Assembly: GCA_964542585.1 (NCBI GenBank)
Contig: CAZIUI010000011.1
Coordinates: 5,831-69,830, forward strand
DNA from: an uncultured Sphingobacteriales bacterium
Lineage (GTDB): Bacteria; Bacteroidota; Bacteroidia; CAILMK01; CAYYUA01
Reading direction: 5' to 3'
DNA: 64,000 nucleotides
Shown: positions 6,501 to 58,071 of the stretch, one piece after another
Layout: each line of letters starts with the position of its first letter
Numbering within the stretch: the stretch's first letter is position 1
Notes under the pieces: model-generated
The model's input: the letters and a program-made list of their open reading frames with translations, nothing else
Database searches by the model: none
What the model was told of the DNA's origin: nothing
Position numbers and translations under genes: made by a program

Positions 6501-7939
6501 AAGCCCTTCAAGGTCATACGAAAGGAGTTGATCCGCTCTGCATATAACTTAATTTCCTTAAGCGGATTGTATTCAAGAATGCCTTGGATCTTGTGGAATA
6601 ATCCTTTCTGAAAAAAGTTATTGGAACGGAATATTGCAGGTCTTACTGAATTCAGGGTCATACGCATCTTCAGAATCGGATCCTTAATATTCCAAATAAG
6701 CTTATCCACTAACACTTCCAGGTCGTGATAAGAGTTATAAAAAGGGCTGGCTTCCAAGCCCTTATCACCTTTGGTGATCCTCACTTCCTTTTTCTCGTCA
6801 TAATACTTGAAGCCTGCTGATGTGTGATAAATAGAGTCCTTTTTGAAAAATATCTTAGCCATAGCCTGAGCGCTAACAATCTTTTTCTGATCAATCAGAA
6901 AGCGATCTGCTAATGCCTGAACATGCTCTTGCCCATTGCGAAAAATGCTTATTCTAGCAGGCTGGTTGTTTACCTTAGTACCAACCACTGCAACACCCTC
7001 CATGGAAAATCCACCTCTGTATTTAACCTTAGGGAAAAAGCCATTTACCTTATACCGCTGTTGCTTTGATTTAAATTGAGGGTATCTGGAGTCTCGCTTT
7101 TGTTCAGCGATAAAAATCTTATCCTTAAAGCCACCCTCCATGGGTTTTTGCCGTATTTCTTTGTTGAAAAAGGCCACAGAATCATCTTTAATTCGCCCAC
7201 GGCTAAGCCTGATCCTGTAATCATCAAGCTGAGCATAAACCTGATTGGGTCCCAGGCCAACACGTTCCCATGTTGCTTTGCCTTGTTTCCCTTTCCATTC
7301 CTGATCTATTGGATGAAATCGTCCTTTAGCATTGTAAATCTGGATGCTATCGGATGCTGTAGCGCAGAATAGCTTAACTGGCCGTTTAAAGTACAATGCC
7401 GGCTTTTCCTGGTTATGATAACCAATATCAAATTGGAAGGATTTAGTATACCAATCTTTAGAGCGACTTTTGTACAAAGCTCTACTTTTAAAGTAGTTGA
7501 CCAGCACTTCATTTAGTTGGTTCATATCCCTCCTGTCACTCAAAAGCTTTTGGAGCACATTGGCCCAGTCTCTGAATTGAGCTTCCGTAATGCCACGGTT
7601 TTTGGCTTCTGTTAAGGCTTGTAGGTAATTTTTGATGCCATTACTTGGCCGGTAATTTTCGGCTTTCATGGACCGGACCAGTTTCATTATCCGGCGCTGT
7701 TCATAATTGCTGAAAGCCTCTCCCTCCCACTTAGCCAGAAAAGCATCTAAGATTCCTTGTATACGGTTAGTTTGGAATCGCTCAAAGGTTTCTGAAAGCT
7801 TTTGTGCAAAGGCTCCCGGTTTTAAAGGCATGCGCCCTGAATCTTGTTGCGCTAATCCTTGATGACTTATCAAGCATAAAAACAATACTGTAAACAAAAG
7901 GCCGTAAGCACCGCGCATGTAGGAGTTTATTTTTATCAA
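3509..7939 (-). CDS. Large (1476 aa) secreted hypothetical protein, possibly TamB/AsmA-like
   Basis: Long uninterrupted ORF with N-terminal signal/anchor (MRGAYGLLFTVLFLCLISHQGLAQQ); 4 bp upstream of plsY on same strand (likely co-transcribed). Family assignment is a guess from size/context only. Confidence 0.5.
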   Translation of the reverse strand: MIKINSYMRGAYGLLFTVLFLCLISHQGLAQQDSGRMPLKPGAFAQKLSETFERFQTNRIQGILDAFLAKWEGEAFSNYEQRRIMKLVRSMKAENYRPSNGIKNYLQALTEAKNRGITEAQFRDWANVLQKLLSDRRDMNQLNEVLVNYFKSRALYKSRSKDWYTKSFQFDIGYHNQEKPALYFKRPVKLFCATASDSIQIYNAKGRFHPIDQEWKGKQGKATWERVGLGPNQVYAQLDDYRIRLSRGRIKDDSVAFFNKEIRQKPMEGGFKDKIFIAEQKRDSRYPQFKSKQQRYKVNGFFPKVKYRGGFSMEGVAVVGTKVNNQPARISIFRNGQEHVQALADRFLIDQKKIVSAQAMAKIFFKKDSIYHTSAGFKYYDEKKEVRITKGDKGLEASPFYNSYHDLEVLVDKLIWNIKDPILKMRMTLNSVRPAIFRSNNFFQKGLFHKIQGILEYNPLKEIKLYAERINSFRMTLKGLAGYLGINKENAKKMLVGLHQKGFVEYRRDGTFLVRNKLVHYVESEKELRDYDNIELKSNNPDSANANLNLNTGNMELSGVPKVNLSDSQRVSIYPADSQVTMQKNRDMTFEGEMIAGRFQFFGDGFSFSYDSFKVNMNNVDSLRLYYPNENGQLVRVKNVIEDIYGSVYIDDPNNKSGQVDLPKYPIFDAKEESVVYYEDPNIYDSVYPSDSFYFQIKPFVAENLDEFEREEMQFDGTFYSAGILPVFDYHIRIMPNNSLGFKKRSPSDGYKLYQGKGIGIMEIKLSSEGLTGAGTVEYLPSSTESQNFVFFPDSMNAIAESFNIPEEGQDKYPPVTGNKIYNHWLPYKDSMFIKERDPLSVYNEEVTFEGDLVLTPAELYGAGELKFERAVIGSNALAMKRNSVNSDSASFKIKALEENKKPNFYTPDASLTLDFDERQLDGESKGKKANISFKQHDFRTSIKGFNWRIDSQSLSMTATKDQKLKESFMQSTKAEQDSLKFNTTAAYFDLAESKIEARNIPHIDVADAEVYPSEGAITIKEGADLETLEDARIVADTNKEYHKFYDVQINIFGKKEYAAKGKYDYKDRNGQPHTIKFDNIRTNQKHKTIAEGEIKDENGFPLSPRFKFKGKVNLKAQRERLAFNGSLKPANSDSLYHTEAFQFADTVNADSIIIPVKNLKNSDGKPIVSGIFIDTATHQLYDVFLGQKHHPQDLTLFKAKGYLHYNYYKGKYMIMKKHNLAKPDSMPYQLAYSDQNREFSVRGPLQMNFSSNEYLDIKTIGKAVYKPKDSAHSFDVVMGMDFPFNKEALKTAGDSLVNLAFPLNDSRDGRQVVQDATYYLVPDRQTQISVLSSLRSFGTFISNEIYRPNFLFTGVNLTWDPRQQAFLDTTKLGLATIHKTAVNKQLKGKLKFKLSRDERRLQFYAGGTPGNYYYFNINNKGCKVIASDYYFNKKVRETAGDVSEDEFKIKPLGNEREKIFFQQSATIRKAEPKDP

Positions 7940-10944: not shown

Positions 10945-13167
10945 TTAGGATGAGTCTTGGGAGGATTCAACAGGTTGGCTTTGATAAACCTGATTTGCGA
11001 AGTCTGCTAATAAATCACGTACTTCGCTGGAATAACGAAAGTTGTATGTGGCTGAAGATAGATCCCCAAGCCCTACTTTAATGGTGTAAGCCTGCTCGGG
11101 CATCACTTTAAAGGTTTCTTCATCGGTGGCATCATCTCCAACAGCTAGCATGAAGTCATAGTCCTCATTGAGCCAATTAGCAACGCCACGCCCTTTATTC
11201 ACACCAGCATTTTTGACTTCCAGGACTTTGTTGCCTTCCATCAGTTCCAGGTCTAAATCTTTTATTGCGGAATATAGCGCTTCATGGAGGTTGCGAAGCC
11301 GCAGCTCAGCCAACCATTTATCTGCTTTTCGGTAATTCCAGACGAGCGAGAACTCTTTTTCTTCAATGTAAGAACCCGGGGTTTTTACGGCATACTGCCT
11401 AAGCAAGTCATAGATATCGGCTTTCCATTCCTGATTCCGGGATTGTTCATTAATCCATCGTTCTTGGTCCTTTCGGATCCAGGCCCCATGCTCACCAACA
11501 ATATCTATAAATAATTCACCAAACCATTCTTCTAGGGTGTTGCGGTCTCGTCCGCTGGTTACCACGATTTTGTTGGAATAATCTTTGGAAAGGTAGTGTA
11601 ACTTGTTGATTAAATGGTTATCCGGGCGGGATTCCATAGGATTATCCTTAACCGGCATTAAAGTCCCATCCAGGTCTAATACGATAAGTCGTTTTTGGGA
11701 ATTGTGATAATGCTTGATAAGGTACTGTCGCGCTTCGAACCGTAGATACTTATCAAGTAAAGCTTCCTGATCTTTTTTGGCCTGATGCAAGCGGCTGATA
11801 AAGTCATAAGCCCAATTTTCAATGTCGTATCGTTTTACTTTGCGGCGCATAATGTGATTAGCTTCTTGTTGCTGGCTTTTGGGCATCTGGATAGCTTGTT
11901 CCATAGCGTTGGCCATCTGCTCCAGATCGTTGGGATTGATGATCATGGCCTCCGATAATTCAGAGGCTGCGCCGGCCATCTCACTTAAAATTAGAACACC
12001 ATTGCCATCATGCTTAGAGGCGATAAACTCCTTAGCTATAAGGTTCATCCCATCCCTGAATGGCGTTACCAAACCGATGTTAGCAATCCGGTAAAGGGAA
12101 AGCAGGCTTTCAAAATCCATTGAGCGGTAAAAGTAATGGATGGGCATCCAGTCCATGTCACCGTATTTCCCATTGATGTAGCCTACTAATTCATCAATCG
12201 TTTCTTTGAGTTCTTTATAATCTTCTACCAACTCCCGGGAAGGTACTACTATTAGTAGGAGGGTTACTTTCTCAATGTATTGGGGGTTTCTGGAAAGCAT
12301 GAGGTCAAATGCCCGCAGACGCTGCAGAATGCCTTTACTATAATCCAGGCGGTCAATACTCAGCATTAGATGTTGAGAGCGAAACTTATCCTGGTAATTG
12401 TCAGCTTTTTCTACCACCGATGGTTGTTGAACGCCCTGGTGAAATTTTTCAAAATCAATTCCCATTGGGAAAGCATCAATGGTAACCGGACGCTGGTCAT
12501 TGATGTAAAATTTCCCCAGTCTTTGATCAAGGCCTAGTAATTGGTAAACGGCGCTACTGAAGTGCCGCATGTAATCTGATGTGTGAAAACCCACCAGATC
12601 AGCCCCTAAAACTCCGCTAACCAACTCCTTACGCCAAGGTAAAAGGCGGTAAACTTCTGATGATGGAAATGGTATATGCAAAAAGAATCCAATGATAGCG
12701 TTAGGTAAAGCCTCCCGTACCAAAGAAGGTAACAAGAACAAATGATAATCCTGGATCCAGATGGTATCTCCTTCCTCATAATGTTGTAAAATGGCTTTAC
12801 AGAAAGCTTTGTTGACGGATTGGTAATATTGCCAAAAGGTTTGATTGTATTGCGTGTGCTCGATAAAGTAGTGAAATAAAGGCCAGATCGTTTCGTTACT
12901 GAATCCTTCGTAATAATTTTTGACTTCCGGCTCACTTAAAAAAACCGGGTGCATTTTGTAACCTTTCAAATCTTCTTGGATGCGTACCTTGTCATGATCC
13001 TCAGGTTCTTCAATACCCGGCCAGCCTATCCAAAATTGATCTGAAGGTTCCTCCATACTTGAAAGTCCAGTGGCTAATCCCCCTTCTGATGGCTTGTAGG
13101 ATAAACCATTTTTATCATGTTTTACCTTAAGAGGAAGGCGATTGGCCACCAGTATCAACTTTCCCAT
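10945..13167 (-). CDS. otsA: Bifunctional trehalose-6-phosphate synthase / trehalose-6-phosphate phosphatase (OtsA-OtsB fusion)
   Basis: N-terminal GT20 domain (LILVANRLP..., IWPLFHYF, GFFLHIPFPSSE) and C-terminal HAD phosphatase domain (LIVLDLDGTLMPV..., GDDATDEETF). Confidence 0.85.
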   Translation of the reverse strand: MGKLILVANRLPLKVKHDKNGLSYKPSEGGLATGLSSMEEPSDQFWIGWPGIEEPEDHDKVRIQEDLKGYKMHPVFLSEPEVKNYYEGFSNETIWPLFHYFIEHTQYNQTFWQYYQSVNKAFCKAILQHYEEGDTIWIQDYHLFLLPSLVREALPNAIIGFFLHIPFPSSEVYRLLPWRKELVSGVLGADLVGFHTSDYMRHFSSAVYQLLGLDQRLGKFYINDQRPVTIDAFPMGIDFEKFHQGVQQPSVVEKADNYQDKFRSQHLMLSIDRLDYSKGILQRLRAFDLMLSRNPQYIEKVTLLLIVVPSRELVEDYKELKETIDELVGYINGKYGDMDWMPIHYFYRSMDFESLLSLYRIANIGLVTPFRDGMNLIAKEFIASKHDGNGVLILSEMAGAASELSEAMIINPNDLEQMANAMEQAIQMPKSQQQEANHIMRRKVKRYDIENWAYDFISRLHQAKKDQEALLDKYLRFEARQYLIKHYHNSQKRLIVLDLDGTLMPVKDNPMESRPDNHLINKLHYLSKDYSNKIVVTSGRDRNTLEEWFGELFIDIVGEHGAWIRKDQERWINEQSRNQEWKADIYDLLRQYAVKTPGSYIEEKEFSLVWNYRKADKWLAELRLRNLHEALYSAIKDLDLELMEGNKVLEVKNAGVNKGRGVANWLNEDYDFMLAVGDDATDEETFKVMPEQAYTIKVGLGDLSSATYNFRYSSEVRDLLADFANQVYQSQPVESSQDSS

Positions 13168-13431: not shown

Positions 13432-14241
13432 ATGACCTTAAAAACTTCACAAAATCATAAACCTCAACACTTATCCGGCAGCCAATTAGCTCAACAACTA
13501 CCCAAACAAGGTCATCCCGTTGTATTTCTTGACTATGATGGAACGTTAACACCTATTGTCAACAACCCGGCTAAAGCCTTTTTGACTGAAGATATGAGGG
13601 CTCAAGTGAAAGCCGTTGCTCGTGAGTTGCCAGTTGTGATCATTAGTGGTCGTGAACGACAGGATGTTCAAAAGCTAGTGGGGCTTGAAGATGTCTTTTA
13701 TGCGGGTAGCCATGGTTATGATATCGCTGGGCCTGATGGCCTATGTCTGGAATTAGAAGAAGCCCAGGCTCTTATCCCGGAGTTGAAGTCGGTATACCAT
13801 ACCTTACTTCCTCAATTGGAAAACTTTTCTGGTATACAGCTGGAGTTAAAGCGTTACACGCTAGCTATTCACTATCGTCAAGCTCAAGAAGGAACAAAAG
13901 AATTGCTCTGGCGGAGAATTCATATTGTATTAGAGGATTTTCCGGCATTACAACTTAAAGAAGGTAAACAGGTTTATGAAATTCAACCTTCGCTAAACTG
14001 GGATAAAGGACAGGCCATGTTATGGCTCATGGATTATTTAGGAGAAGAGTCAATAAAGAACTACCCGCTATTTCTTGGAGATGATCTCACGGATGAAAAT
14101 GCTTTTTCACTTATAAAAGAGCCTGGAATGGGGGTGTTAGTGGGAGCGTTAGACCGCCCAACAGCGGCCAAATACTATTTAGAAAATGTAAAAGAGGTTC
14201 AATCCTTTTTAAAGCATCTACACAAAAAGTTTAAAAATTAA
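13432..14241 (+). CDS. otsB: Trehalose-6-phosphate phosphatase (standalone)
   Basis: HAD-IIB motifs: VVFLDYDGTLTPIV (motif I DxDGT), IISGRE (motif II), GDDLTDENAF (motif IV). Confidence 0.8.
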   Translation: MTLKTSQNHKPQHLSGSQLAQQLPKQGHPVVFLDYDGTLTPIVNNPAKAFLTEDMRAQVKAVARELPVVIISGRERQDVQKLVGLEDVFYAGSHGYDIAGPDGLCLELEEAQALIPELKSVYHTLLPQLENFSGIQLELKRYTLAIHYRQAQEGTKELLWRRIHIVLEDFPALQLKEGKQVYEIQPSLNWDKGQAMLWLMDYLGEESIKNYPLFLGDDLTDENAFSLIKEPGMGVLVGALDRPTAAKYYLENVKEVQSFLKHLHKKFKN

Positions 14242-14335
14242 AGATGGGTGATGCTTAAATTAATTGGTTTTTGAGAGCTTTTCTCTTTTTAAAATTTTAA
14301 CTTTAATGTTCATTTACCAAACAGTAAATGTTCCT

Positions 14336-17300
14336 ATGCTAAAATCGAGCGTTTTTGGAGTATTAAAGGAAATCATTTTTTGGTTAATATTTATTGGCCT
14401 AGTGATTCCAGAGTTTTGCATTGCTCAAAATTCCTGCACTCCAAAATTTACCTTAAGTACAAAAACAGTTTGCTCATCGGATACGCTAAGTATAACGAAT
14501 CAATCTACCGGTAGTAATTTAGCTTACAAATGGACTTTTAAGGACAATAATGGGAATAAAATAAAGACTCGCTCCAATAAAAGTCCCTCAGTAACCTTTA
14601 ATAATCCCGGTAGCTCGCAGCTTAATTACAGTGTTCAGCTAGTTATTACGAATGCTAGCGGATGCGATGATACCCTTACCAAAAACTTTACGTTAAAGCC
14701 GCAACCAACGGCCGTGTTCTCAATGGATTCAAGCCGGTTTTGCAAAAGTGGCACCGTAAATTTTACAGACGCCTCAAAAGGCAATGGTCTGAGTTACCAG
14801 TGGGATTTTGGAGTTGCTTCTAAAACTGGTGATACAGCCGTAGTAGCCAACCCCAGTTATAAATACAAGGATACCGGCGTTTATAAACCAACATTAACTG
14901 TTACAAACGGGCAGGGATGTGATGATCAAGCAACTAAGAAGGTTGTGGTAGGAAATCCTCCAGTGGCTGATTTTAAAGTCAGGAATAATTGTAAAAAACA
15001 ATCCACAAAATTTACTGATATAAGCCAGACCTTCTCTGATTCAGTAGCCAAATGGGATTGGGACTTTGGTGACAACTCCGGTTCTAGCCTTAAGAATCCA
15101 AATCATCAGTACAGTAGCAAAAGCACATTCAACGTTAGCCTTAAAATTACTTTAGCCGGTGGATGCGTTGATTCAACATCTGATAATGTCAAGATACATT
15201 CCACGCCATCAGCTAGTATAGGTGACACCGGTATTTGTGAGAATAACAACGTCAGTTTTACGGGTTCAAAACCATCTTCCGCTAGTAGTTTTAAGTGGAA
15301 ATTTGGCGATGGTAAAGTGGAGTCCAATAATATCAATCCTTTTCATGTTTATGCGCAAAGCGGCGCTTACCAGCCTTCGCTTGCCGTAACTTTTCCTGAT
15401 AATCGTACATGCGAGGTACCTACTGATTCCTTAGAAGTGTTTGGTAATTCTGCTATTAATGCGACCATAACCACCGCTGATACCCAGTGCAGCAAAGGAA
15501 ACCAGGTCTGTTTGGTCGATTCCACACCTGCATCAAGTAATGTTACTATTACGAATAGAACCGTCCTTTATGGGGATGGGGCCAAAAGCCAGGATTCCGG
15601 ATCAAATGTGCGGAAATTTTGCCACTCCTACAGCCAGTCCAATAACACTTATTCCGTTCAATTAACCGTTAAAAGTCAGTCTGGATGCAAGGCCAGTAAA
15701 AATTTTAATTCGGCGATTTTCGTAAGAAAACCATGGACAGCTAGTTTCTCCACGCAGTATCAAACCCAATGCTTTGGGACTCCCGTAACTTTTACCAACC
15801 AAACAGGCCTTGACAGTAGCAATGCTAGCAGTTTTAAGTGGGATTTTGATAATGGTGAGACCGATACAACACGGTGGACGGGCTTTACCAAAACTTACAA
15901 CAAAAACGGGGCTTTTTCCCCTTCTTTAACCGTTACCAGTAAATATGGCTGCACCCGGTCTTTTGAATTGTCTAAAGGGGCCGAAAATGTCTCATTTAAT
16001 TTCAATATTACCGCTTCAGCTGATACCCTGTGTTTCGGAGGTAAAAAACTTGAGCTTAGCCAACCTCCTATTAAGAATGCTAATTTTACATGGTTTTATG
16101 GAGATGGCGACAGCCAAAACCAGAATGTAACTGGATGGACCACAACTCATGAATATCCTAATCCAGGTCAGTATACCTACAAGCTAAAGGTCAGCAATGG
16201 CAATTGCGATTCTACATCACCCCTCGACACCGTTAATATTATTGGCGTTAACCCCAATTTCTCCATAAAAGATAGTTTTGAGTTTATGTGCGGGGTGCCA
16301 GACTCAGTTGTCTTTGTAGATTCCGCACTAAATCCTGAGCAATCCATACACTATGGCGTGCCAAATACCCAGAGGATTTGGGATTTTGGAGACACCCTTG
16401 CACCCTCCTGTACTACAAATACCGCTAAGGGTAAAAACGTCAATAAAAACTGCCGCTATTCCAGAGATTCGGTATCAGTTGCGCATAGTTATCCCAAAAA
16501 TCAACCGGATTGTTATGAGGCTACAATAACCTTTGATGACACCGTTTCCGGTTGCAAAAGTTCAAAGACCACCGAAATCGCCTTACAGAAACCGGAAGCA
16601 GGACCAGATTCCTCCCATAGCCCGCCCTTACCAGGTGCTAAATTTATTTCAGATAATGAATGCCTGGGACCTGAGAGTCGTAAATCAGTTGAGGTAAATC
16701 TTGATTCCATCCAGCCCCAATGTGGCCCGGAGAATTATTGGGTTATGTGGGATTCTACTTGTGCTGAAAAGAGTGGTAACTTTTCCGCCCAATGGGAGAA
16801 TGCTCCGGTCAGTCATACTTATGGTTATGATGATCAACCCTGTGAAAGTGACGGAACCCGAACCATAGGCCTCGTGGTCCAAAATGGAACGGACTCTAAC
16901 GGGAACTTGTGCAAAGATACGGCTTGGTATACTGATGAAATCCAACAAGCCAGTGTAGATCCGCGTATTACTTCTGATTTTAAACCCTCTGCGGATAGAT
17001 GCCCACCGGTCAATGTTACGTTCTCCCTCAAAGATTCACTCAACCAGGATAGCGTATCCTCTTATACATGGAAAATTGACGATGATACATTCGTTAGAAA
17101 CAATCCCTCGCCTATCAGTTATAAATTCAAAAAGCACAAGGAATACGAGGTTTCTGTTAAAATTCGCCAGTTCCGCCTGGAAGATAGCTGCATCGCAACA
17201 CCTACTAGTAGATCAGATGGCTTTATAGAACTAGGGGTTGGTTTTAGAGGAGGCTTTAGGGCAAAGAAAACGCGAGTTTGTAAGGGTGAATCCGTAACTC

Positions 17301-20300
17301 TTAGGGACAGTGTTAAATATTGGGATACGACCAGGATAAACAGCAATTTTACAATAGACTTCTGGGGTCAATCCAGTCGCAGGAATGCAGGAAAAGAAAC
17401 CCTTAAATGGGATTATGGTGATGGTCAAGGATTCAAGGGGCCATCCCACGATCCTGTAAATTCCTACGATACTATAGGAGAATATGACGTAAGCCTGGCG
17501 ATTAAGGACAGTTCCGGTTGCCGTGATACCATTACTAAAAAGGACTTAATTCGTGTATATGGCGTCAATGCGAGTTTTGGCAGCAAGCCGAGAGAACTAA
17601 TATGCACCCCGGATGCCCAGTTTTTTGATTCCAGCACCTTGGTTGATAGTGGCACTAGTTTTCCTGGTCATCCCAATGACACCGTGGTTAAATGGGAATG
17701 GCAATTTGGGGATGGTAAGCCTAAAAGCTTTGTTCGTAACCCTGCTCATAATTACACCACTAACGACACTTTTGACGTGAAGATGGAGGTTGAAAGTAAC
17801 CAAGGTTGTAAGGATTCAATTACCAAAGGATATACGATCCCAGGGCCTGCTCCAAGTTTTAGCATTGTTGGTGGGGATACATTAGGCTGTAAACCTCATA
17901 CTGCGTTGTTTAATAACAATTCTAAAAGTTCTACTTCCTACGTATGGGAGTTTGGAGATCCGAATAACAATGTGATCTCAACCCGTGCTGATACCAATGT
18001 AGATTTTACTTACAAAAAAGCTGGTGAATATGCCGTGTACCTTGTGGGTAGGGATAGTGTTACCAATCCTTTAACCAATACCAAGGAATTCTGCTCAGCT
18101 ACTTTCCCTGATACCACTTTACAGGACAAAAAAATTGTGAAAGTAAGAGGTCAACCTACCAGTTCCTTTACCGCTATTACCAGTTGTAATAAGCAAGTTA
18201 GCTTTCAAGAAGACGCTAAGTCAACTCCTACCTCATCCATAACTAAATACAAGTGGCAATTTGATACCCAGGGCTCCAGCACCCAAGCTGACACCAACTT
18301 TACTTTCTCAAAGCCTGGTAATTATACTGTAGACCTGATTGTCACCAACAAGGCAGGCTGTAAGGATACAGCAAGCCAGCAGGTAAGTATTCCTTTTATC
18401 CCAAATGCTAAATTTAAAGCCAAAAATGCCTGCGTTGGTCAAAGTATAAATTTCCAGGATCAATCAATGGTTAAAAAGGATTCCATCCAAAAATGGAAAT
18501 GGAAATTCGGTGATGGTGACACTAGCTCAGCTGAGAATCCCTCGCATTCTTACAGTATCGCGGGTAACTACACGGTTCAGCTAACTGTCACTTCCTTCAG
18601 CGGATGTAAGGACACTGTATCCCAAACCCTTAATATTCCAGGTAAACCCTCGGTAGCTTATACTATTAACCGAAAGTGCTCTAACCAAGATTTAAACCTT
18701 CAAAATAACACCACGAGCGATAGCGGGTCCTTAAGTTACCAATGGGAATTTGGAGATGGCACAACAGCTAGCACTGCTATGCCTAGTAAAACATACAGTA
18801 GCTCAGGGAATTATCAGGTAGAATTGGTAGCAGATGTGAAATACACCACCTTAACGTGTACGGACTCCCTTTCTAAAAACGTCACCATTGATCCCACGCC
18901 AAATTCCCAATACAGTGTAAGTAACACTTGCTTGAATAAAACTGTAAACTTCACTAATCAAAGTACTATTCCAAGTGGATCCATCAGTTCTTATCAGTGG
19001 TCATTTGATGATGGAGGTTCCAGCTCGCAAAAAAGCCCGGATTACCAGTATGCTAATGACGGGAGTTACAAACCTGAACTGATCGCAACTTCCGCAGAGG
19101 GATGTGAAGATACGGCTCAACAATCCCTGCAGGTTCACCCTGTGCCCCAAGCTAGTTTTACTGCTAATAATGCCTGTGAAAATGATACCATTAACCTGCA
19201 AAACAATACCACCCTTAAGCAGGGGACGCTAACTTATGATTGGGCTTTTGGGGATGGCACAACAAGTACCAAAACCAGCCCTGACAAAGCTTATAGCTCG
19301 GATGGCAATTATCAGATCGAGGAAATAGCCACTTCCGGCAAAGGTTGTAAGGATACTGCTAATCAATCAATTACGGTTAACCCACGTAGTAGTCCGTCTT
19401 TCAGCTTTTCTGATGATTGTGAAAAGGATACAGTGAGTTTTACCAATAATACCACAGGCCCTGGTGGGCTAAGCTATGATTGGGAATTTGGAGATGGCAG
19501 CAGCAGCACATCAGCAAACCCACAGAAAGTTTACAGTACCGATGGTAACTACCAGGTGAAGCTTATTAGTACAACACCTAGTAACTGTAAAGATAGTTTG
19601 ACCAAAACCATTGCTATATTTCCTAATCCTGATCCGGGTTACACGGTAACAAATAACTGTGTTGATGCTGCTGTCTCATTCCAAAATAACACAACAGTAG
19701 ACAGTGGAAGCCTATCTTACCAATGGCAATTTGGAGACGGTAATTCCAGTACCGTAGCTAATCCGTCTAATACCTATACCAGTTATAAGTTTTTCAACGT
19801 CTCGCTCACCGCTAATACAAATGAAGGGTGTTCAGCTGATACGACAGGTTCAATTCGGCCTTTCCCGCTTCCCACTGCAACTTATACCGTTCAGGATACT
19901 TGTGAGCAACAGCCGCATTTTTTCCAAAATAACAGCTCCATCGCAAATGGCAGTGTTAGTTATCAGTGGGATTTTGATGATGGAAGCCAGAGTACCAGTA
20001 CTAGCCCAATGCATCAATACGCTAGTCAGGGCACCTATCAACCTCAGTTGACTGCTACCAGTAATAAAGGGTGTATCGATTCTGTAACCCAATCAGTAGA
20101 GGCTTTTAATAAACCAATAGCCCAATTTGGGTTTACCAATAAATGTCAGCCTCAGGCTATCCCTTTCCGCGATCAGTCGGTAACTAGTTCCGGTAATGCT
20201 ATTCAGGCCTTTAATTGGGACTTTGGGGACGGGAACAGTAGTTCAAAGGAAAATCCCGACTATACTTACAATAAGTTTGGTACATACAATGTAACCTTAG

Positions 20301-23179
20301 TGGTAACCAATAACCGCTCCTGTAAAGACACCACCCAACAAAAAGTAAACAGCTATGCAAAACCTACTGCTGATTTCACGGCTCCAGTGGTTTGTGAGAC
20401 CCAAGCCACGCCTTTCCAGGATCAGTCGAGCATAGCAAGCGGAGGTATCACGACCTGGTCATGGGAGTTTAATGCACCTGGGGGTACATCCAGCCGCGTC
20501 AATCCTAGCTTTACCTATCCGGATGGCGGCAGTTATCAGCCCCAGCTTATTATCACAAGCAATGAAAACTGCCGGGATACGATTTCTAAGGTTGTAACAG
20601 TGAATCCGATTCCAGAGCCAGGTTTTACTGTCAATGATACCTGTTTTAACCAACCAACGTCCTTTGAAGATACAAGTAGCATTCAATCCGGTAGCATTGC
20701 TAATAGGGAATGGGTGCTAGGTGATGGGACCACTGTTAGTAACCAAACGACCTTTACGTATACTTATCCCGGTCCAAAAACCTATCAGTCCAAGCTTAAA
20801 GCCATTTCTATCAAAGGATGCATTGATTCCGTTTCTAAACCGACAAGGGTCCAATTTTTACCCCAAGCAGACTTTAGCAGCGATACCGTCTGCAGTAATA
20901 AGCCCACAACCTTTACCGATTCTTCCGCTGTTAAAAAGTCAAGTATTGTCTCATGGGAATGGAAATTTGGTGATGGTTCACAATCCAGCATTGCCAATCC
21001 ACAGCACATTTACCGAAAAGGAGGGCAATATCCTACCCGTTTAGTGGTGAGGTCATCCAAAGGCTGTTTAGATACGAACCGGCAAAATACGCAGGTTTAT
21101 TTCAAGCCGGAAGCTGGTTTTGCGGTTGATTCTATATGTTTCCCGGATACGTCATCGTTCACTGACACCAGTGTTGTAACAAATAGCTCGTTTCAGCAGT
21201 GGTCTTGGGATTTTGGGGACGGTTCGTCCGCAAACGTGCAAAACCCTGACTATGCTTATGATACCTTTGGTAGTTATGAAGTCAAGTTGGTAGCTACAAC
21301 ATTACAAGGATGTAAGGATACAGCCAGGGATACGGTTAGGGTGAACCCCAAACCTGTTTCGGATTTTGCTTTTGAGGACACCTGCCAACCCAACCCCGTT
21401 AATTTCCGGGATCAAAGTCAAGTGGACACCGGGCGTTTAGTGGCTTATAAGTGGCAATTTGGCGAAGGGGATACCAGTACCAAGCCCTCGCCTGTCCATC
21501 CTTACGATACCTTTGGCCGTTTTGAAGCTTCGCTTGCGGTTAGAACTGAAAAAAATTGCAGGGATACGGCTATTCAAACAGTGGAAGTTTTTCCAAAGCC
21601 AGTTGCAGGCTTCACGGTTGATAACGTTTGTCGTATTGATACAGCTATTTTCCAAGAGACTTCCTCAGTTGCTGGTAACAGTTCCCTGCAGGATTGGGAC
21701 TGGCAATTGGGTGACAGTACATCAGCAAATGGAGATTCACTAAGCTACACCTACGCAGTTGCAGACACTTATGATGTCGAAATGATAGTTACTACTACAG
21801 ATGGTTGTAAGGATACGGTGGTGAATCCTCTTACCATTTATCCCATGCCGCAGAGCCGGTTTATAACCAATGACTCTTTACAATGCCTGGAATCAGAAAA
21901 CTTTAGTTTTACCAATGAAACCACCATTAAGTGGGGATCCAGTAGTTACAATTGGAGGAGTTTCAGGTTGATAGACTCTTCGTTATCTGACCAGGCTACG
22001 AGTTTAGATTATCAGCGTCAATTTAGGGATACCGGAGATTATAAAGTGGAATTGAAAGCCATTTCTAACTTCAATTGTTCAACCAGAGATAGCCAGGTTG
22101 TTAAGGTTTACCCTGATCCTCAAGCAACTTTTACTGTGAACAATGGTTGTATCAATGATCCATTAAAGTTATTGGACCGCAGTCAAGTAGGAAAGGGAGT
22201 CGTTGACAGTTGGCTTTGGAAACCTGGAAATGGTAACTTAAAAATCCAACAAGATCCCCAGGCAAGCTATGATACAGGTGGTATTTATCCGATACAGCTA
22301 GTTGCAACCACTAACGCGGGCTGCGATGATACGGCTCAGCAAAACAACCGCATTTATGGTAAACCAGAGCCGGCAACCATGAGGCGGGTAACCGTGAAAG
22401 AAGATTCTTTTGCAAGAATTGAGTGGGAGCCTTCTCCTAGTCCTAATCCCGGTTTCTACGAAATTTACCGCTCTAATACATCGCCCACCACCAGTGGCTC
22501 GCCATTGGGAACTTTCCAACCGAATAATACAGTTGTACGGGATTTCAATGTAATGGTAGATTCCCAGGATTATTACTACACCCTCAATTTTGTAGATAGT
22601 TGTGGTATCCCTTACCCGTTTAACAACTTTGGCCGCACGATTCATTTGGACGTTGAGACCGATGTCCGCTTTCCAGAGTTATCTTTTAATTCTTACGAAG
22701 GATGGCCAAGGGGTGTTAAGGATTACCAGGTTCAGTGGAGTAGTAATCGTACTGTTGGTTTTGAGCCTGTGAAGGCCGTTGATACCAATGAGTTCAAGGA
22801 TAGCTTAACAAGAGGGTTTGGGAATCCGTACTGCTACCGAATTGTAGCCCGTAAGGCCGATTCGACCTCGGTGATCAGTGTCTCCAATGTAAGCTGTGTG
22901 AATTCAGATTCTAAAATTTATATCCCTGAAGCGTTTTCCCCCAATGATGATAACCACAATGACCTTTTTAGGCCTAAAGGGAGTTTTGTGTTAGATTACA
23001 ACATTAAGATCTTTAACCGTTGGGGTGAAAAGATATTCGAGAGTAATGACAGGCAAAAAGCTTGGGACGGAAAGTATAAGGGAGAAGAAGCACCAACTGG
23101 TATTTATCAATATCAAGTAATAGTACAGGGAACAGAAGATGTTATATCCAAGTCAGGGACTGTCACCCTTATCCGTTAG
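14336..23179 (+). CDS. Giant PKD-repeat cell-surface adhesin with gliding-motility-associated / T9SS type-B C-terminal domain
   Basis: ORF runs from 14264, but Met at 14336 precedes a good signal peptide (MLKSSVFGVLKEIIFWLIFIGLVIPEFCIAQ). ~28-30 repeats with PKD signature (W-x-F-G-D-G ... Y-x-V-x-L). C-terminus (KIYIPEAFSPNDDNHNDLFRPKG...KAWDGKYKGEEAPTGIYQYQV) matches the gliding motility-associated C-terminal domain of SprB/CHU-type proteins. Confidence 0.85.
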   Translation: MLKSSVFGVLKEIIFWLIFIGLVIPEFCIAQNSCTPKFTLSTKTVCSSDTLSITNQSTGSNLAYKWTFKDNNGNKIKTRSNKSPSVTFNNPGSSQLNYSVQLVITNASGCDDTLTKNFTLKPQPTAVFSMDSSRFCKSGTVNFTDASKGNGLSYQWDFGVASKTGDTAVVANPSYKYKDTGVYKPTLTVTNGQGCDDQATKKVVVGNPPVADFKVRNNCKKQSTKFTDISQTFSDSVAKWDWDFGDNSGSSLKNPNHQYSSKSTFNVSLKITLAGGCVDSTSDNVKIHSTPSASIGDTGICENNNVSFTGSKPSSASSFKWKFGDGKVESNNINPFHVYAQSGAYQPSLAVTFPDNRTCEVPTDSLEVFGNSAINATITTADTQCSKGNQVCLVDSTPASSNVTITNRTVLYGDGAKSQDSGSNVRKFCHSYSQSNNTYSVQLTVKSQSGCKASKNFNSAIFVRKPWTASFSTQYQTQCFGTPVTFTNQTGLDSSNASSFKWDFDNGETDTTRWTGFTKTYNKNGAFSPSLTVTSKYGCTRSFELSKGAENVSFNFNITASADTLCFGGKKLELSQPPIKNANFTWFYGDGDSQNQNVTGWTTTHEYPNPGQYTYKLKVSNGNCDSTSPLDTVNIIGVNPNFSIKDSFEFMCGVPDSVVFVDSALNPEQSIHYGVPNTQRIWDFGDTLAPSCTTNTAKGKNVNKNCRYSRDSVSVAHSYPKNQPDCYEATITFDDTVSGCKSSKTTEIALQKPEAGPDSSHSPPLPGAKFISDNECLGPESRKSVEVNLDSIQPQCGPENYWVMWDSTCAEKSGNFSAQWENAPVSHTYGYDDQPCESDGTRTIGLVVQNGTDSNGNLCKDTAWYTDEIQQASVDPRITSDFKPSADRCPPVNVTFSLKDSLNQDSVSSYTWKIDDDTFVRNNPSPISYKFKKHKEYEVSVKIRQFRLEDSCIATPTSRSDGFIELGVGFRGGFRAKKTRVCKGESVTLRDSVKYWDTTRINSNFTIDFWGQSSRRNAGKETLKWDYGDGQGFKGPSHDPVNSYDTIGEYDVSLAIKDSSGCRDTITKKDLIRVYGVNASFGSKPRELICTPDAQFFDSSTLVDSGTSFPGHPNDTVVKWEWQFGDGKPKSFVRNPAHNYTTNDTFDVKMEVESNQGCKDSITKGYTIPGPAPSFSIVGGDTLGCKPHTALFNNNSKSSTSYVWEFGDPNNNVISTRADTNVDFTYKKAGEYAVYLVGRDSVTNPLTNTKEFCSATFPDTTLQDKKIVKVRGQPTSSFTAITSCNKQVSFQEDAKSTPTSSITKYKWQFDTQGSSTQADTNFTFSKPGNYTVDLIVTNKAGCKDTASQQVSIPFIPNAKFKAKNACVGQSINFQDQSMVKKDSIQKWKWKFGDGDTSSAENPSHSYSIAGNYTVQLTVTSFSGCKDTVSQTLNIPGKPSVAYTINRKCSNQDLNLQNNTTSDSGSLSYQWEFGDGTTASTAMPSKTYSSSGNYQVELVADVKYTTLTCTDSLSKNVTIDPTPNSQYSVSNTCLNKTVNFTNQSTIPSGSISSYQWSFDDGGSSSQKSPDYQYANDGSYKPELIATSAEGCEDTAQQSLQVHPVPQASFTANNACENDTINLQNNTTLKQGTLTYDWAFGDGTTSTKTSPDKAYSSDGNYQIEEIATSGKGCKDTANQSITVNPRSSPSFSFSDDCEKDTVSFTNNTTGPGGLSYDWEFGDGSSSTSANPQKVYSTDGNYQVKLISTTPSNCKDSLTKTIAIFPNPDPGYTVTNNCVDAAVSFQNNTTVDSGSLSYQWQFGDGNSSTVANPSNTYTSYKFFNVSLTANTNEGCSADTTGSIRPFPLPTATYTVQDTCEQQPHFFQNNSSIANGSVSYQWDFDDGSQSTSTSPMHQYASQGTYQPQLTATSNKGCIDSVTQSVEAFNKPIAQFGFTNKCQPQAIPFRDQSVTSSGNAIQAFNWDFGDGNSSSKENPDYTYNKFGTYNVTLVVTNNRSCKDTTQQKVNSYAKPTADFTAPVVCETQATPFQDQSSIASGGITTWSWEFNAPGGTSSRVNPSFTYPDGGSYQPQLIITSNENCRDTISKVVTVNPIPEPGFTVNDTCFNQPTSFEDTSSIQSGSIANREWVLGDGTTVSNQTTFTYTYPGPKTYQSKLKAISIKGCIDSVSKPTRVQFLPQADFSSDTVCSNKPTTFTDSSAVKKSSIVSWEWKFGDGSQSSIANPQHIYRKGGQYPTRLVVRSSKGCLDTNRQNTQVYFKPEAGFAVDSICFPDTSSFTDTSVVTNSSFQQWSWDFGDGSSANVQNPDYAYDTFGSYEVKLVATTLQGCKDTARDTVRVNPKPVSDFAFEDTCQPNPVNFRDQSQVDTGRLVAYKWQFGEGDTSTKPSPVHPYDTFGRFEASLAVRTEKNCRDTAIQTVEVFPKPVAGFTVDNVCRIDTAIFQETSSVAGNSSLQDWDWQLGDSTSANGDSLSYTYAVADTYDVEMIVTTTDGCKDTVVNPLTIYPMPQSRFITNDSLQCLESENFSFTNETTIKWGSSSYNWRSFRLIDSSLSDQATSLDYQRQFRDTGDYKVELKAISNFNCSTRDSQVVKVYPDPQATFTVNNGCINDPLKLLDRSQVGKGVVDSWLWKPGNGNLKIQQDPQASYDTGGIYPIQLVATTNAGCDDTAQQNNRIYGKPEPATMRRVTVKEDSFARIEWEPSPSPNPGFYEIYRSNTSPTTSGSPLGTFQPNNTVVRDFNVMVDSQDYYYTLNFVDSCGIPYPFNNFGRTIHLDVETDVRFPELSFNSYEGWPRGVKDYQVQWSSNRTVGFEPVKAVDTNEFKDSLTRGFGNPYCYRIVARKADSTSVISVSNVSCVNSDSKIYIPEAFSPNDDNHNDLFRPKGSFVLDYNIKIFNRWGEKIFESNDRQKAWDGKYKGEEAPTGIYQYQVIVQGTEDVISKSGTVTLIR
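14400..22350 (+). repeat. Tandem coding repeats (~260-280 bp period) encoding PKD domains inside the giant adhesin gene
   Basis: Recurrent WxFGDG / NPxHxY / CxDT motifs at ~88-aa spacing throughout the protein. Confidence 0.7.
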
Positions 23180-23210: not shown

Positions 23211-23444
23211 CTATACGTCTAGAATAACTTTTTGTTTTTTATATTTAGACTTTCGGTACCAGAGATAACCCAGAATGCCGACTATTGAAAATTTCATGGC
23301 AACCAATGCCATTAGGCTACCCACAATAATGTTGGATTGATAAGCAGCTGATTGCGTTTGTGTTACGCTTTCTTCTCCGGTAACAGGTAGTCCTGTAAAT
23401 AAAAGCATTAGAAAGCAACAACTTAGCAAAGTATAATACCTCAT
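23211..23444 (-). CDS. Small hypothetical membrane protein (77 aa)
   Basis: Two hydrophobic segments (LLSCCFLMLLFTGLPV; IIVGSLMALVAMKFSIVGILGYLW) and basic C-terminus; immediately downstream of the oxidase subunit III-like gene on same strand. Confidence 0.4.
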   Translation of the reverse strand: MRYYTLLSCCFLMLLFTGLPVTGEESVTQTQSAAYQSNIIVGSLMALVAMKFSIVGILGYLWYRKSKYKKQKVILDV

Positions 23445-33565: not shown

Positions 33566-34771
33566 TTATTGGGCTAGATCCGCTGTAATGGCTTCTACGG
33601 TTGGTAAGGGTTCTCCTGCGATGTAGGTTAAAAGCGCTCCGCCACCTGTAGAAATGAAAGAAGCGCGGTTAGCAAGGTTAAATTGATCGAAAGCCGTGGC
33701 CGTATCACCCCCGCCAATCAGCGAGAATGCGCCATTCTGGGTGGCACCAGATACCGACAAGGCTAGGCGGTAAGTACCTTCTTGTAGCCCATCTACTTCA
33801 AAAACCCCTACCGGACCGTTCCAAAAAATGGTCTGACTGTTTTTGATTAGCTCCTCATACTGCTCAATGGTTTTCGGGCCGATATCCGCACCCATAAGGT
33901 TATCCGGTATTTCTACACCGGCGGTTATTTGTTTTGGCGCTTCTGAACTAATAGTCTCGCAGGCTATGGAATCGGATGGCAGAAAGAGGTTTACATTATT
34001 TTCTTCAGCTTCCTCTATAAGGGAAAGGGCTAAATCAAGGTAATCGGACTCCAACATGGAGTTACCGATATGGTAACCTTTGGCTTTCAGGAAAGTGTAA
34101 GTCATCCCGCCTCCAATCAGGATGTTGTCTGCAAACTGCATCAACGAGCGCAGTAGTTGTATTTTATCAGAAACTTTAGAACCTCCGATAATAGCCGTGT
34201 AGGGTTTGTCGGGGTGTTTAGCTACCTTATCCGCGTTATTAAGTTCGGAGGTCATTAAGGAGCCCATCATACGCCTATCTGGCGGAAAAAAATCAGCAAT
34301 TGCGGCCGTAGAAGCATCGCTACGGTGGGCGGTACCAAAAGCATCATTGATATACACATTCCCAAGCTGCGCTAGCTTTTCAGCAAATTCTGAGTGATTT
34401 TGTTTTTCCGCTTTATGGAAGCGGAGATTTTCCAGCAGCATAACCTGGCCAGGTGCTAAATTTTCGGCCATTTGCTTAGCCTCTTCTCCCACGGTTGATG
34501 GCTGAAAAAGCACCTCACGCTTTAACAGTGCTTTTAAATGCGGAACAATATGCCGAAAAGAGTATTTTTCATGATATTCCCCTTTAGGACGCCCCATGTG
34601 GGACATTAAAACAATAGACCCCCCATCGTTCAATACTTGCTCTATGGTTGGCAGGGCTGCTTTGATACGGGCATCATCTATAACCTGATGCTGCTCATCT
34701 AACTTTACATTAAAGTCCACCCTTATCAAGGCCGTTTGACCCTCAAAATTGAATTCATTTAAGCTTGACAT
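33566..34771 (-). CDS. pgk: Phosphoglycerate kinase
   Basis: Canonical PGK motifs (RVDFNVKLDE, GGGMTYTFLKAKG, GGGDTATA). Confidence 0.9.
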   Translation of the reverse strand: MSSLNEFNFEGQTALIRVDFNVKLDEQHQVIDDARIKAALPTIEQVLNDGGSIVLMSHMGRPKGEYHEKYSFRHIVPHLKALLKREVLFQPSTVGEEAKQMAENLAPGQVMLLENLRFHKAEKQNHSEFAEKLAQLGNVYINDAFGTAHRSDASTAAIADFFPPDRRMMGSLMTSELNNADKVAKHPDKPYTAIIGGSKVSDKIQLLRSLMQFADNILIGGGMTYTFLKAKGYHIGNSMLESDYLDLALSLIEEAEENNVNLFLPSDSIACETISSEAPKQITAGVEIPDNLMGADIGPKTIEQYEELIKNSQTIFWNGPVGVFEVDGLQEGTYRLALSVSGATQNGAFSLIGGGDTATAFDQFNLANRASFISTGGGALLTYIAGEPLPTVEAITADLAQ

Positions 34772-42560: not shown

Positions 42561-42576
42561 TAGACGGCGGTGGATT

Positions 42577-43260: not shown

Positions 43261-43300
43261 ACGGTATGACGATCTTAAAGAATTCGACCGCTAAAATGCC

Positions 43301-43968: not shown

Positions 43969-43971
43969 CTA

Positions 43972-48872: not shown

Positions 48873-49907
48873 ATGATACAAAAGACCATGCTTCTAGGGG
48901 TATTTGCGTTTTTAATAGGACTAAGCGGATGTGATCAAAACGCCAAACCCTGGCTTAAAGCTGATGTTAGCGAGGTTGAAGTAAACTACAAGTTTGAACG
49001 CCTTGCGCCCCAACTTTATGAAGGCCCGCGTTCTAATTTTCAACAACGATTAGATTCACTTTATAAAACGCATCCCGATTTAGTTAACCTTTACACCACC
49101 CAGGTTGTCGGTATTGGACCTCCGAGAAAAGCCACAAATGCTCAACTTTTAGAGCAATTTATTTACGATCCATACTGGCAAAAAGTCTTCAGGGCTACGC
49201 AGTCTACTTTTCAGAATTTAAAAGGATTGCAGCGGGAGCTTACCCAAGCTTTTAAGCATTATCGGCATTACTATCCGGAGGACACTATTCCTGACGTTTA
49301 CACCTTAGTAAAGGGTATTGACATTCGTTACAAGGTGGCTACTTTACAGGATAAGGCGCTGATCATCTTTTTAGATATGTATCTTGGCAAGGATTACAAA
49401 TTTTATCCATCTCAGTATCCTGACTATCGGATAGAACGCTTAACACGAAAAAATATGCTACCGGATGTGATGGAAACGCTTTTTCAGGAGAAATATCCTG
49501 AGGATAGTTTTACCAATAAGTCCTTTTTAAGCAAAATGCTCTACAGGGGTAAAAAGCTTCATTTTATGAAATCCATGATGCCACGCCAACATGATACGGC
49601 CATTATGCGTTACACCCTTGAGGATTGGAATTGGTGCCTTACCTTTGAAAAAAAGATTTGGAACCATTTTGTAAATCAGGAACTGCTCTTCGAAACCAAC
49701 ACTAAAAAGTATACAGATTTTCTGAAAGAAGCACCATTCACAAGCGCTGGTGGTATCCCTCCAGAGTCACCTCCACGCTTAGGAGCATTTATAGGGTTCC
49801 GGATTATTAGGGAATATCGTAGAAACACCTCCCAAACAGAATTGAGCAGGCTGATTCAAAATCAAAATTATCAGCAAATTTTAACCAAATCGGGCTATAG
49901 CCCTTAA
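48873..49907 (+). CDS. gldB: Gliding-motility lipoprotein GldB-like
   Basis: Lipoprotein signal (MLLGVFAFLIGLSGCDQN), ~340 aa, located directly divergent/adjacent to nadE as gldB is in Flavobacterium johnsoniae. Assignment rests on context and size. Confidence 0.5.
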   Translation: MIQKTMLLGVFAFLIGLSGCDQNAKPWLKADVSEVEVNYKFERLAPQLYEGPRSNFQQRLDSLYKTHPDLVNLYTTQVVGIGPPRKATNAQLLEQFIYDPYWQKVFRATQSTFQNLKGLQRELTQAFKHYRHYYPEDTIPDVYTLVKGIDIRYKVATLQDKALIIFLDMYLGKDYKFYPSQYPDYRIERLTRKNMLPDVMETLFQEKYPEDSFTNKSFLSKMLYRGKKLHFMKSMMPRQHDTAIMRYTLEDWNWCLTFEKKIWNHFVNQELLFETNTKKYTDFLKEAPFTSAGGIPPESPPRLGAFIGFRIIREYRRNTSQTELSRLIQNQNYQQILTKSGYSP

Positions 49908-54877: not shown

Positions 54878-55079
54878 AATAAAAACGTCTTCAACTTAAA
54901 GCTGATCTTATTTTGGTATTACGACACTTTTTCGACTTGTATACAATAACTTTACAGTATTAAGGATTTATAGGTATGAAATTTAAGTCGGTAAGATTGG
55001 TCCACCTTGCGGCTCTCCAGTAAAACAGTCAGAAAGCCGCATAAAGGTGAAAGGTGTTATTGAAGGGCTATTAAGCGAT

Positions 55080-58042: not shown

Positions 58043-58071
58043 AGCTTGTGATTTTTTGATTATTACTGTTT

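Follow-up and report, generated by a model that had tools for sequence, protein, structure and literature searches.

What is the giant gene that lies directly after a trehalose-phosphatase gene (otsB) in this 64,000-nucleotide stretch of DNA (the window), how would its product reach the cell surface, and do its many repeats or its neighbour carry a meaning of their own? [quoted passage not shown] In order, the protein comprises seven PKD domains, a Cys-rich double module, 21 further PKD domains, two FN3-like domains and the CTD, and it belongs, as an unexceptional case, to an already known class of bead-on-a-string surface proteins. The main practical value of the analysis is a corrected annotation: a likely start at ATG 14336, about 33 modules, an orphan type B substrate and an array that is not hypervariable.

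Table 1. Features of the giant gene and its surroundings, in window coordinates
Feature	Coordinates	Strand	Details and evidence
Divergent fused trehalose-6-phosphate synthase/phosphatase gene	10945..13167	-	740 aa; PF00982 E=6.3e-159, PF02358 E=1.7e-46
Stand-alone trehalose-phosphate phosphatase gene (otsB-like)	13432..14241	+	269 aa; PF02358 Trehalose_PPase E=2.6e-47
Intergenic spacer	14242..14335	+	94 nt for a start at ATG 14336
Giant surface protein gene	14336..23179	+	2,947 aa from ATG 14336; ortholog N-termini
Predicted Sec-type signal peptide	14336..14428	+	aa 1-31, MLKSSVFGVLKEIIFWLIFIGLVIPEFCIA/Q; read from the sequence, compared with ortholog N-termini
PKD domains 1-7	14438..16225	+	own iterated HMM; Pfam PKD_4 and PKD
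Cys-rich central module	16226..16963	+	aa 631-876, 246 aa, 10 Cys; without Pfam match
PKD domains 8-28	16964..22348	+	own iterated HMM
Two FN3-like beta-sandwich domains	22349..22909	+	aa 2672-2858; AF2 and Foldseek
T9SS type B C-terminal sorting domain	22919..23176	+	aa 2862-2947; TIGR04131, PF13585
gldB (gliding/T9SS lipoprotein)	48873..49907	+	PF25594 GldB_lipo E=1.1e-91

The reading frame runs along the + strand from 14264 to 23179, and in the sequence as given no frameshift interrupts it, in agreement with the single ORF described in an earlier note on this DNA. Two short ORFs within it, 20721..21044 (+) and 22298..22645 (-), were dismissed as by-products of the long ORF. The choice of start sets the length of the protein: 2,947 aa from ATG 14336, 2,957 aa from ATG 14306, where the public gene model (P0001) begins, and 2,971 aa from TTG 14264. 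The earlier note paired a start at 14336 with a length of 2,971 aa, which are mutually inconsistent; its start agrees with ours, and only the TTG yields its length. Across ortholog N-termini the initiator Met precedes the first conserved Cys by 24-35 aa, and in three orthologs (L004, L005 and L001) an in-frame stop lies 0-5 codons 5' of the Met, which disfavours a long N-terminal extension. These comparisons point to ATG 14336 as the likely start. The protein then opens with a predicted signal peptide, a hydrophobic N-terminus ending CIA/Q that we read by eye from the sequence and that takes the same form in six orthologs.

The start also decides how close the gene stands to its neighbour. That neighbour does encode a trehalose-phosphatase, as had been proposed, and the public collection contains a protein identical to its product. 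The 22-bp gap reported between the two genes is valid only for the mechanical TTG start and grows to 94 nt from the ATG, with ortholog counterparts of 100, 99, 41 and 187 nt. We scanned this gap for terminator-like and sigma-70-like sites and for an exact TAnnTTTG (the Bacteroidota -7 box) and found none, and its RNA folds no better than shuffles (z = -1.0). At about 14273-14290 a 5-bp GAGAG/CUCUU hairpin precedes a U-tract, but we judged it too weak for a terminator. An AT-rich box that is weakly promoter-like, TAACTTTA, stands at 14298-14305, about 38 nt 5' of the ATG, and all five orthologs carry a counterpart, a box with one mismatch to TAnnTTTG 28-39 nt 5' of their ATG, in DNA that is itself AT-rich. 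These boxes suggest, weakly, that the giant gene probably has a promoter of its own.

The two genes might instead form one operon that couples synthesis of trehalose, for osmoprotection or desiccation tolerance, with a surface adhesin. They share a strand, the lack of a terminator-like site would permit read-through, the gap holds no exact -7 box, and a trehalose gene followed by the giant gene is the order in three orthologous loci, L002, L003 and L004 (59% identity), and, with different trehalose genes (a HAD-TPP fusion and GH65), in a fourth, L005 (43%). We nevertheless hold the operon to be unlikely. The short spacing was an artefact of the TTG start and the real gaps span 41-187 nt; the promoter-like box recurs; the 277 nt upstream of the gene in the closest ortholog (L001, 64% identity) hold no otsB C-terminus; and in family members at about 32% identity (L086, L087 and L088) the upstream genes are unrelated and the trehalose neighbourhood is absent, so that the tight coupling to otsB that the earlier note hinted at is not supported. 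The flanking PrmA, TIM, COX3 and miaA genes are conserved as well, which looks more like general synteny within the clade, and adjacency to otsB is most simply a lineage-specific gene order and not a functional unit.

The divergent fused trehalose gene is conserved in L002, L004 and L005, with only an unannotated 649-aa gene at its position in L003. The trehalose neighbourhood persists as far as the 43%-identity ortholog, further than one might expect if gene order were purely a matter of chance, and its persistence in one uncultured clade is a weak hint of co-regulation. Scans of GTDB genomes with otsB, as a single protein and then as an alignment, returned no close relative; the best matches were otsB genes of unrelated phyla, about 42% identical and thus uninformative on synteny or taxonomy. 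Rfam found one tRNA-Met only in the whole window.

The evidence for the route of export lies at the other end of the protein. The last 86 residues score 51.5 bits against TIGR04131 (cut-off 35; the alignment spans 2-85 of the 85 profile positions) and 57.4 bits against CHU_C (PF13585; cut-off 27), and the match ends on the last residue, 2947 of 2947. The gliding-type, or type B, CTD that had been proposed is thereby confirmed at the curated TIGR04131 cut-off. All close homologs of the giant protein come from Bacteroidota. The window holds gldB, a sign that the host has genes associated with gliding and the T9SS, and two proteins with type A CTDs; none of the T9SS core genes (gldK-N, sprA, porV) is within it.

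Type B cargo is anchored via PorP-like proteins (PMC9143113), and nine of the 12 type B substrates of Flavobacterium johnsoniae have a cognate PorP/SprF-like gene directly downstream, the other three being orphans that use one common orphan shuttle (PMC12618676). Here, no PorP/SprF match was found by Pfam or NCBIfam in any window ORF scanned, nor was such a gene seen beside the giant gene in eight related loci; what follows the giant gene is a convergent 77-aa ORF, a COX3-like gene and miaA. With no PorP/SprF gene downstream or elsewhere in the window, we call the protein an orphan type B substrate.

Export through the T9SS to the cell surface is, from these domain matches, the most likely fate of the protein. 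By analogy with the family, the signal peptide would direct export across the inner membrane, and the T9SS would then recognise the C-terminal region, meaning the type B CTD and probably also the FN3-like domains next to it, for passage across the outer membrane; the type B secretion signal can reach about 235 aa, past the conserved CTD (PMC12618676). On the cell surface it would be held by an outer-membrane protein of the PorP/SprF family, the product of a gene elsewhere in the genome. From there it would project as a fibril with about 33 beta-sandwich modules and a length, when extended, of roughly 110-130 nm, and presumably act as an adhesin.

A more specific role, in which the protein would do what SprB does and be driven along the surface by the gliding motor as a mobile adhesin, is quite improbable. 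The type B CTD is as in SprB, gldB is in the window, the protein has a great length and a filament-like form, and it is the pairing of CTD and shuttle that decides whether an adhesin rides the helical track (PMC12618676). Against this, the SprB repeat (PF13573) is absent from the Pfam matches at E<=0.01, though present in several other matches of the homolog search, and there are no sprC-, sprD- or sprF-like neighbours, otsB and the COX3 operon adjoining instead. The label 'SprB-class' that the protein had been given therefore stands for the type of CTD, and falls for the repeats and the gene neighbourhood.

The orphan T9SS cargo that we favour consists mostly of PKD domains. With the Pfam gathering score as threshold, reached by the repeated domains, the two PKD families (PF18911 / PF00801) account for 26 stretches at 929 bits (PKD_4, E=1.2e-287) and 21 stretches at 474 bits (PKD). 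Our own iterated HMM delineates 28 units. Domain annotation thus bears out the PKD identity of the repeats, and the 28-30 copies counted earlier compare well with 28 clear units, to which the central module adds one divergent PKD and perhaps a second; the spacing is about 82 aa (246 nt) in place of the approximately 88 aa (270 bp) given before, and of the W-x-F-G-D-G cores described there are only 10 strict copies. Units 12-28 are the most regular, at about 82 aa each with 4-aa linkers and two conserved Cys apiece.

Exactly two Cys occur in 27 of the 28 units, and each conserved pair probably forms a disulfide. The Bacteroidota O-glycosylation sequon D[ST][AILVMT], as defined in PMC8550257, occurs 57 times, where shuffles give 14.4 +/- 3.6; in 18 of the 28 units it stands at C-x-D-[ST]-x. 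The fibril is, to judge from these motifs, probably disulfide-stabilised and glycosylated; the four-fold excess of the sequon, which most PKD units carry at one and the same structural position, leads us to expect glycosylation at regular intervals along the fibril, and may interest glycobiology specialists.

The array is broken by the Cys-rich central module, which has no match even at E<=10 in Pfam; a lenient Pfam scan of this module and of the tail before the CTD gave nothing meaningful. Comparison by hhalign of aa 637-747 with the PKD units (probability 93.5%, E=2.4e-7) identifies the first half of the module, at the sequence level, as a divergent PKD with an insert rich in Cys. The second half probably forms a further beta-sandwich and perhaps a second divergent PKD. 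The AF2 model of the module is of low confidence (pLDDT 58.9); Foldseek with it gave generic tandem Ig/FN3 folds and nothing at E<=0.001, and we base no conclusion on it. Among 1.84 billion cluster representatives, no more than 313 match the module at E<=1e-3. It is rare, lacks a Pfam model and is of possible interest to T9SS specialists.

The segment before the CTD had been described as a distinct Ser/Pro/Thr-rich region. Its S+P+T content is 26%, against 28% in the whole protein, and we find instead two confidently modelled FN3-like domains: the AF2 model is all-beta with pLDDT 90.1, and its top Foldseek matches in the PDB are tandem FN3 domains (E about 1e-8). This FN3-like module is common to about 30 other type B CTD proteins. 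A match to ChitinaseA_N (PF08329), in which no single stretch passes, was treated as Ig-like cross-matching and not as chitin binding.

Might these features mark a class of their own, a distinct and rare Bacteroidota surface fibril with a near-fixed architecture, a disulfide and a sequon in each bead and, within the clade, co-regulation with trehalose synthesis? If so, desiccation or osmotic stress would turn on adhesion or biofilm formation at the same time as osmoprotection. We think this reading very unlikely.

The repeats of our preferred orphan cargo also bear on whether the gene varies in length. The earlier note had proposed dozens of imperfect tandem DNA repeats as a substrate for recombinational length variation, but TRF found no tandem-repeat array in the giant gene. 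Codon-aligned nucleotide identity between units averages 44% and reaches 56% at most, and the longest exact direct repeat between units measures 19 nt, where codon shuffles give 12-15 nt. Efficient RecA-dependent recombination usually needs roughly 20-30 nt, and 19 nt falls below this.

Our comparison is among orthologs at 59-64% and 43% identity. The four at 59-64% (P0002-P0005; 2,935-2,945 aa) have exactly 28 units each, which match ours one to one by position; the 43%-identity ortholog has 31, having gained whole units in insertions of 87 and 162 aa. Unit by unit, identity to the positional counterparts in P0002-P0005 is 38-79%, mostly above 50%, against 31% among units of the same protein, so that there is no concerted evolution. 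From these alignments the PKD repeats appear ancient and individually conserved, and the domain number appears stable. A contingency locus, in which recombination or slippage between PKD-coding units frequently alters the length of the protein, could invoke the 28 head-to-tail units of similar length and the shift to 31 over long evolutionary times, but is largely refuted, on the sequences compared, by the lack of a TRF array, the divergence of the units with their 19-nt longest repeat, the constant count in P0002-P0005 and the independent evolution of the units, and scarcely deserves further weight.

Several known systems resemble parts of this protein. The closest solved relatives of its PKD unit are PDB 9lqj, 4u6t and 1l0q (E=9e-15 to 1e-8), which are PKD domains of the clostridial collagenases ColH/ColG and of a Methanosarcina surface-layer protein. 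They share with it the W-x-F-G-D-G core and the Ig-like fold, but the conserved second Cys of our unit has no Cys counterpart in the ColH alignment, and there an enzyme or S-layer module bears one to a few PKD copies, against about 30 in a row here. The 'grappling hook' protein GhpA of Aureispira sp. CCB-QB1 (PDB 9flp) is likewise a giant Bacteroidota surface protein (5,898 aa), whose C-terminal ~70 residues align with our CTD (E=0.002); the sequence match is limited to the CTD, and the likeness carries no sign of hook-like assemblies or predation.

SprB of F. johnsoniae is also a giant repetitive surface protein; it has a type B CTD, depends on the T9SS for its secretion and is bound by a PorP-family protein (PMC9143113), but it is built of PF13573 repeats and encoded in a sprCDBF operon, whereas ours is built of PKD repeats and has no sprF-like neighbour. 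[quoted passage not shown]

The giant gene, encoding a predicted PKD-repeat surface protein, occupies a single + strand ORF, without interruption as the earlier note had held. Counted from its TTG this ORF has 2,971 codons; that note had paired 2,971 aa with a start at 14336, which is inconsistent, and its 22-bp gap after the stop of otsB, the upstream trehalose-phosphatase gene, is true only of the TTG. The public gene model (P0001), 100% identical to the window protein, uses ATG 14306. In six orthologs the first conserved Cys is preceded by 24-35 residues, and in three of the six an in-frame stop lies 0-5 codons 5′ of the Met. From ATG 14336 the N-terminus reads MLKSSVFGVLKEIIFWLIFIGLVIPEFCIA, then QNSC, and is signal-peptide-like and similar to those of the orthologs. 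On the strength of these N-termini and upstream stops, ATG 14336 is most likely the start, which puts the gap to otsB at 94 nt; residues are numbered from it here.

Pfam finds PKD_4 in 26 stretches of the protein (E=1.2e-287) and PKD in 21, and an HMM built from and iterated on the protein itself delimits 28 units; this is a PKD-repeat protein. Units 12-28 are highly regular, with linkers of 4 aa and start-to-start distances of 80-90 aa; their median of 82 aa (246 nt) replaces the 88 aa (270 bp) proposed before. Strict W-x-F-G-D-G cores number only 10. Of the 28 units, 27 have exactly two Cys, at conserved alignment positions. Among solved structures the unit comes closest to PKD domains of collagenase ColH and of a Methanosarcina surface-layer protein; when it is aligned with ColH, its conserved second Cys stands opposite a non-Cys.

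The protein is also a member of the type B class of type IX secretion system (T9SS) cargo. Its C-terminal sorting domain (CTD) matches CHU_C in Pfam at aa 2862-2935 (57.4 bits, cut-off 27) and TIGR04131, the T9SS type B sorting domain, over profile positions 2-85 of 85 and up to the last residue (51.5 bits, cut-off 35). The earlier note had staked its gliding-type CTD on the type B model, and since TIGR04131 scores above cut-off that assignment stands. The AF2 model of aa 2672-2947 is confident (pLDDT 90.1) and all-beta, and its best Foldseek matches in the PDB are tandem fibronectin type III (FN3) domains (E ~1e-8); the stretch that precedes the CTD is therefore modelled as two FN3-like domains and not as a low-complexity linker. 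The distinct Ser/Pro/Thr-rich region once placed there was not recovered (S+P+T 26%, against a protein average of 28%). The same FN3-FN3-CTD module terminates ~30 other giant homologs. Type B secretion signals may reach ~235 residues, past the conserved CTD (PMC12618676), and by analogy the size of the module would fit such signals. The C-terminus of Aureispira GhpA (PDB 9flp) matches the CTD in sequence at E=0.002.

Dozens of imperfect DNA repeats, a supposed substrate for recombination, had been expected in the gene. Tandem Repeats Finder reports no array anywhere in it, and a repeat search returns only 20-59-nt families around the W-x-F-G-D-G codons (60-90% identity). Codon-aligned units share on average 44% of nucleotides (maximum 56%) and 31% of amino acids, and exact direct repeats in the CDS reach 19 nt at most, where codon shuffles yield maxima of 12-15 nt. 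Each of four orthologs (64, 59, 59 and 59% identity; 2,945, 2,944, 2,944 and 2,935 aa) carries 28 units. In full-length alignment, same-position units are 38-79% identical to these four, mostly >50%; as this is well above the 31% within the protein, units are individually conserved, with no concerted evolution. The only compared ortholog with a different number is P0006 (43% identity), whose 31 units result from a one-unit insertion of 87 aa and a two-unit insertion of 162 aa. Judged from these sequences, the array thus gains or loses whole units across long evolutionary times and is no fast-varying locus; with diverged units and a constant count of 28 at 59-64% identity, a hypervariable repeat gene is rejected.

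Between PKD units lies a Cys-rich central module of 246 aa, outside the PKD HMM and with no Pfam match even at E<=10. Profile-profile comparison identifies its first half as a divergent PKD domain into which a Cys-rich segment is inserted (probability 93.5%, E=2.4e-7); its second half was matched by none of the comparisons and closes with a PKD-like G-N-x-C-x-D-T motif. AF2 models the module poorly (pLDDT 58.9), and a fold search with this low-confidence model gave nothing significant. The module is rare: among 1.84 billion cluster representatives, matches number 313 at E<=1e-3, falling to 49 at E<=1e-30. Proteins bearing it fall into two size classes (~1.2-1.3 and ~2.5-3.4 kaa), and its distance from the N-terminus is always a few hundred residues.

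Coordinates of features in the window and in one ortholog locus
Feature	Position	Strand	Remarks
Type A (Por_Secre_tail) CTD proteins, two	808-2871, 38901-41861	both +	without other Pfam domain
1,476-aa ORF	3509-7939	-	no Pfam/NCBIfam match even at lenient thresholds
Fused GT20 trehalose-6-phosphate synthase/phosphatase	10945..13167	-	divergent from otsB
otsB, trehalose-phosphatase	13432..14241	+	PF02358, E=2.6e-47
Giant gene ORF	14264..23179	+	TTG 14264, 2,971 aa; ATG 14306, 2,957 aa; ATG 14336, 2,947 aa
TAnnTTTG-like box	14298-14305		TAACTTTA
PKD units with C-x-D-[ST]-x	14336-23179		units 1, 3, 9, 10, 12-17, 19-22, 24-26, 28
Cys-rich central module	16226-16963		aa 631-876; 10 Cys
77-aa ORF	23211-23444	-	converges on giant gene, 31-nt gap; downstream of COX3-like gene
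Phosphoglycerate kinase	33566-34771	-
Cytochrome c maturation cluster	41892-46395	+	CcmB-, CcmC-, CcmE-, CcmF-like proteins
gldB	48873-49907	+	GldB, E=1.1e-91
Five consecutive ORFs	53912-59310	-	321, 329, 324, 193, 294 aa; no family assignment
Trehalose genes replacing stand-alone otsB	L005 1835-5813		HAD/phosphatase fusion and GH65 phosphorylase

Transcription may read through from otsB into the giant gene. The gap between them has no predicted terminator-like hairpin, folds no better than shuffles and lacks an exact TAnnTTTG box. One ortholog locus at ~59% identity (L002) repeats the order otsA/B fusion (-), otsB (+), giant gene (+), 77-aa ORF (-), COX3-like (-) and miaA (-), two others (L003, L004) have it as far as contigs and annotation reach, and at 43% identity (L005) the upstream genes are again trehalose-related, yet different, one being a 523-aa fusion. 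Against a functional unit, the gap varies among orthologs (100, 99, 41 and 187 nt), and the 277 nt upstream in the closest of them (L001 1-277) do not hold the otsB C-terminus, so that adjacency may there be already broken or widened. In three loci of more distant family members, at ~32% identity, that retain the central module (L086, L087, L088), the upstream genes are unrelated and encode an amine oxidase, a two-component sensor and a bestrophin-like protein. All five orthologs, moreover, have a weak, AT-rich, one-mismatch TAnnTTTG-like box 28-39 nt 5′ of the ATG. If the window copy does act in a promoter, the likely transcription start would lie past ATG 14306, favouring ATG 14336 and an independent promoter, to which the box points weakly. 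Conservation extends to PrmA, TIM and miaA, so the neighbourhood overall resembles a gene order kept at the level of the clade, and its trehalose genes give one weak regulatory hint. Two trehalose-phosphatase domains are adjacent here, one in the GT20 fusion and one in otsB. The 77-aa product is hydrophobic at its N-terminus and again in a second stretch; its gene is called at the equivalent position in L001, L002 and L003.

The gldB gene and the two type A CTD proteins fit a Bacteroidota host that glides or bears a T9SS. Its phosphoglycerate kinase is only 53-55% identical to the best named relatives (Ferruginibacter, Mucilaginibacter, Pedobacter), metagenomic proteins reaching 89%, and scans of the GTDB species set found no close genome; the host therefore appears to belong to an uncultured, poorly represented lineage. 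Within the same-strand run of five ORFs, the 193-aa ORF weakly matches an Mfa1-family fimbrial subunit (E=1.4e-5, far below cut-off), and the run may form a cluster for fimbriae or lipoproteins.

No PorP/SprF-family gene was found in the scanned window ORFs or adjoining the giant gene in eight related loci, so within these the protein counts among type B substrates as an ‘orphan’ in the terminology of PMC12618676; F. johnsoniae has 3 such orphans among its 12 type B substrates, with one orphan shuttle common to them (PMC12618676). Domain architecture, CTD class, repeat stability and genomic context are observed here; for export and anchorage we follow PMC12618676 and PMC9143113. By analogy the protein would be exported by Sec, translocated by the T9SS under direction of its C-terminal region, then captured and anchored at the surface by a PorP/SprF-like outer-membrane protein whose gene lies elsewhere. 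The giant protein has no catalytic domain, so by default it is taken for an adhesin. Ig-like domains measure ~3.5-4 nm each, at which size ~33 modules would form a fibril of ~110-130 nm.

The Bacteroidota O-glycosylation sequon, D-(S/T)-(A/I/L/V/M/T) (PMC8550257), occurs 57 times as D[ST][AILVMT] (14.4 +/- 3.6 in shuffles), with similar counts (50-66) in orthologs and distant homologs. In 18 of 28 PKD units it directly follows the second conserved Cys. This pattern predicts regular glycosylation; the periodicity could instead be a mere structural motif of this PKD subtype.

Similar ‘PKD domain-containing’ and ‘gliding motility-associated-like’ proteins are already numerous in public databases. 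New here are the corrected start codon and architecture; the Cys-rich module, which lacks annotation, and the periodicity of the sequon add two minor novelties. The protein differs from SprB in having neither PF13573 repeats nor an spr operon, on which grounds an SprB ortholog is rejected; it most likely works in like manner to other type B-CTD surface adhesins.
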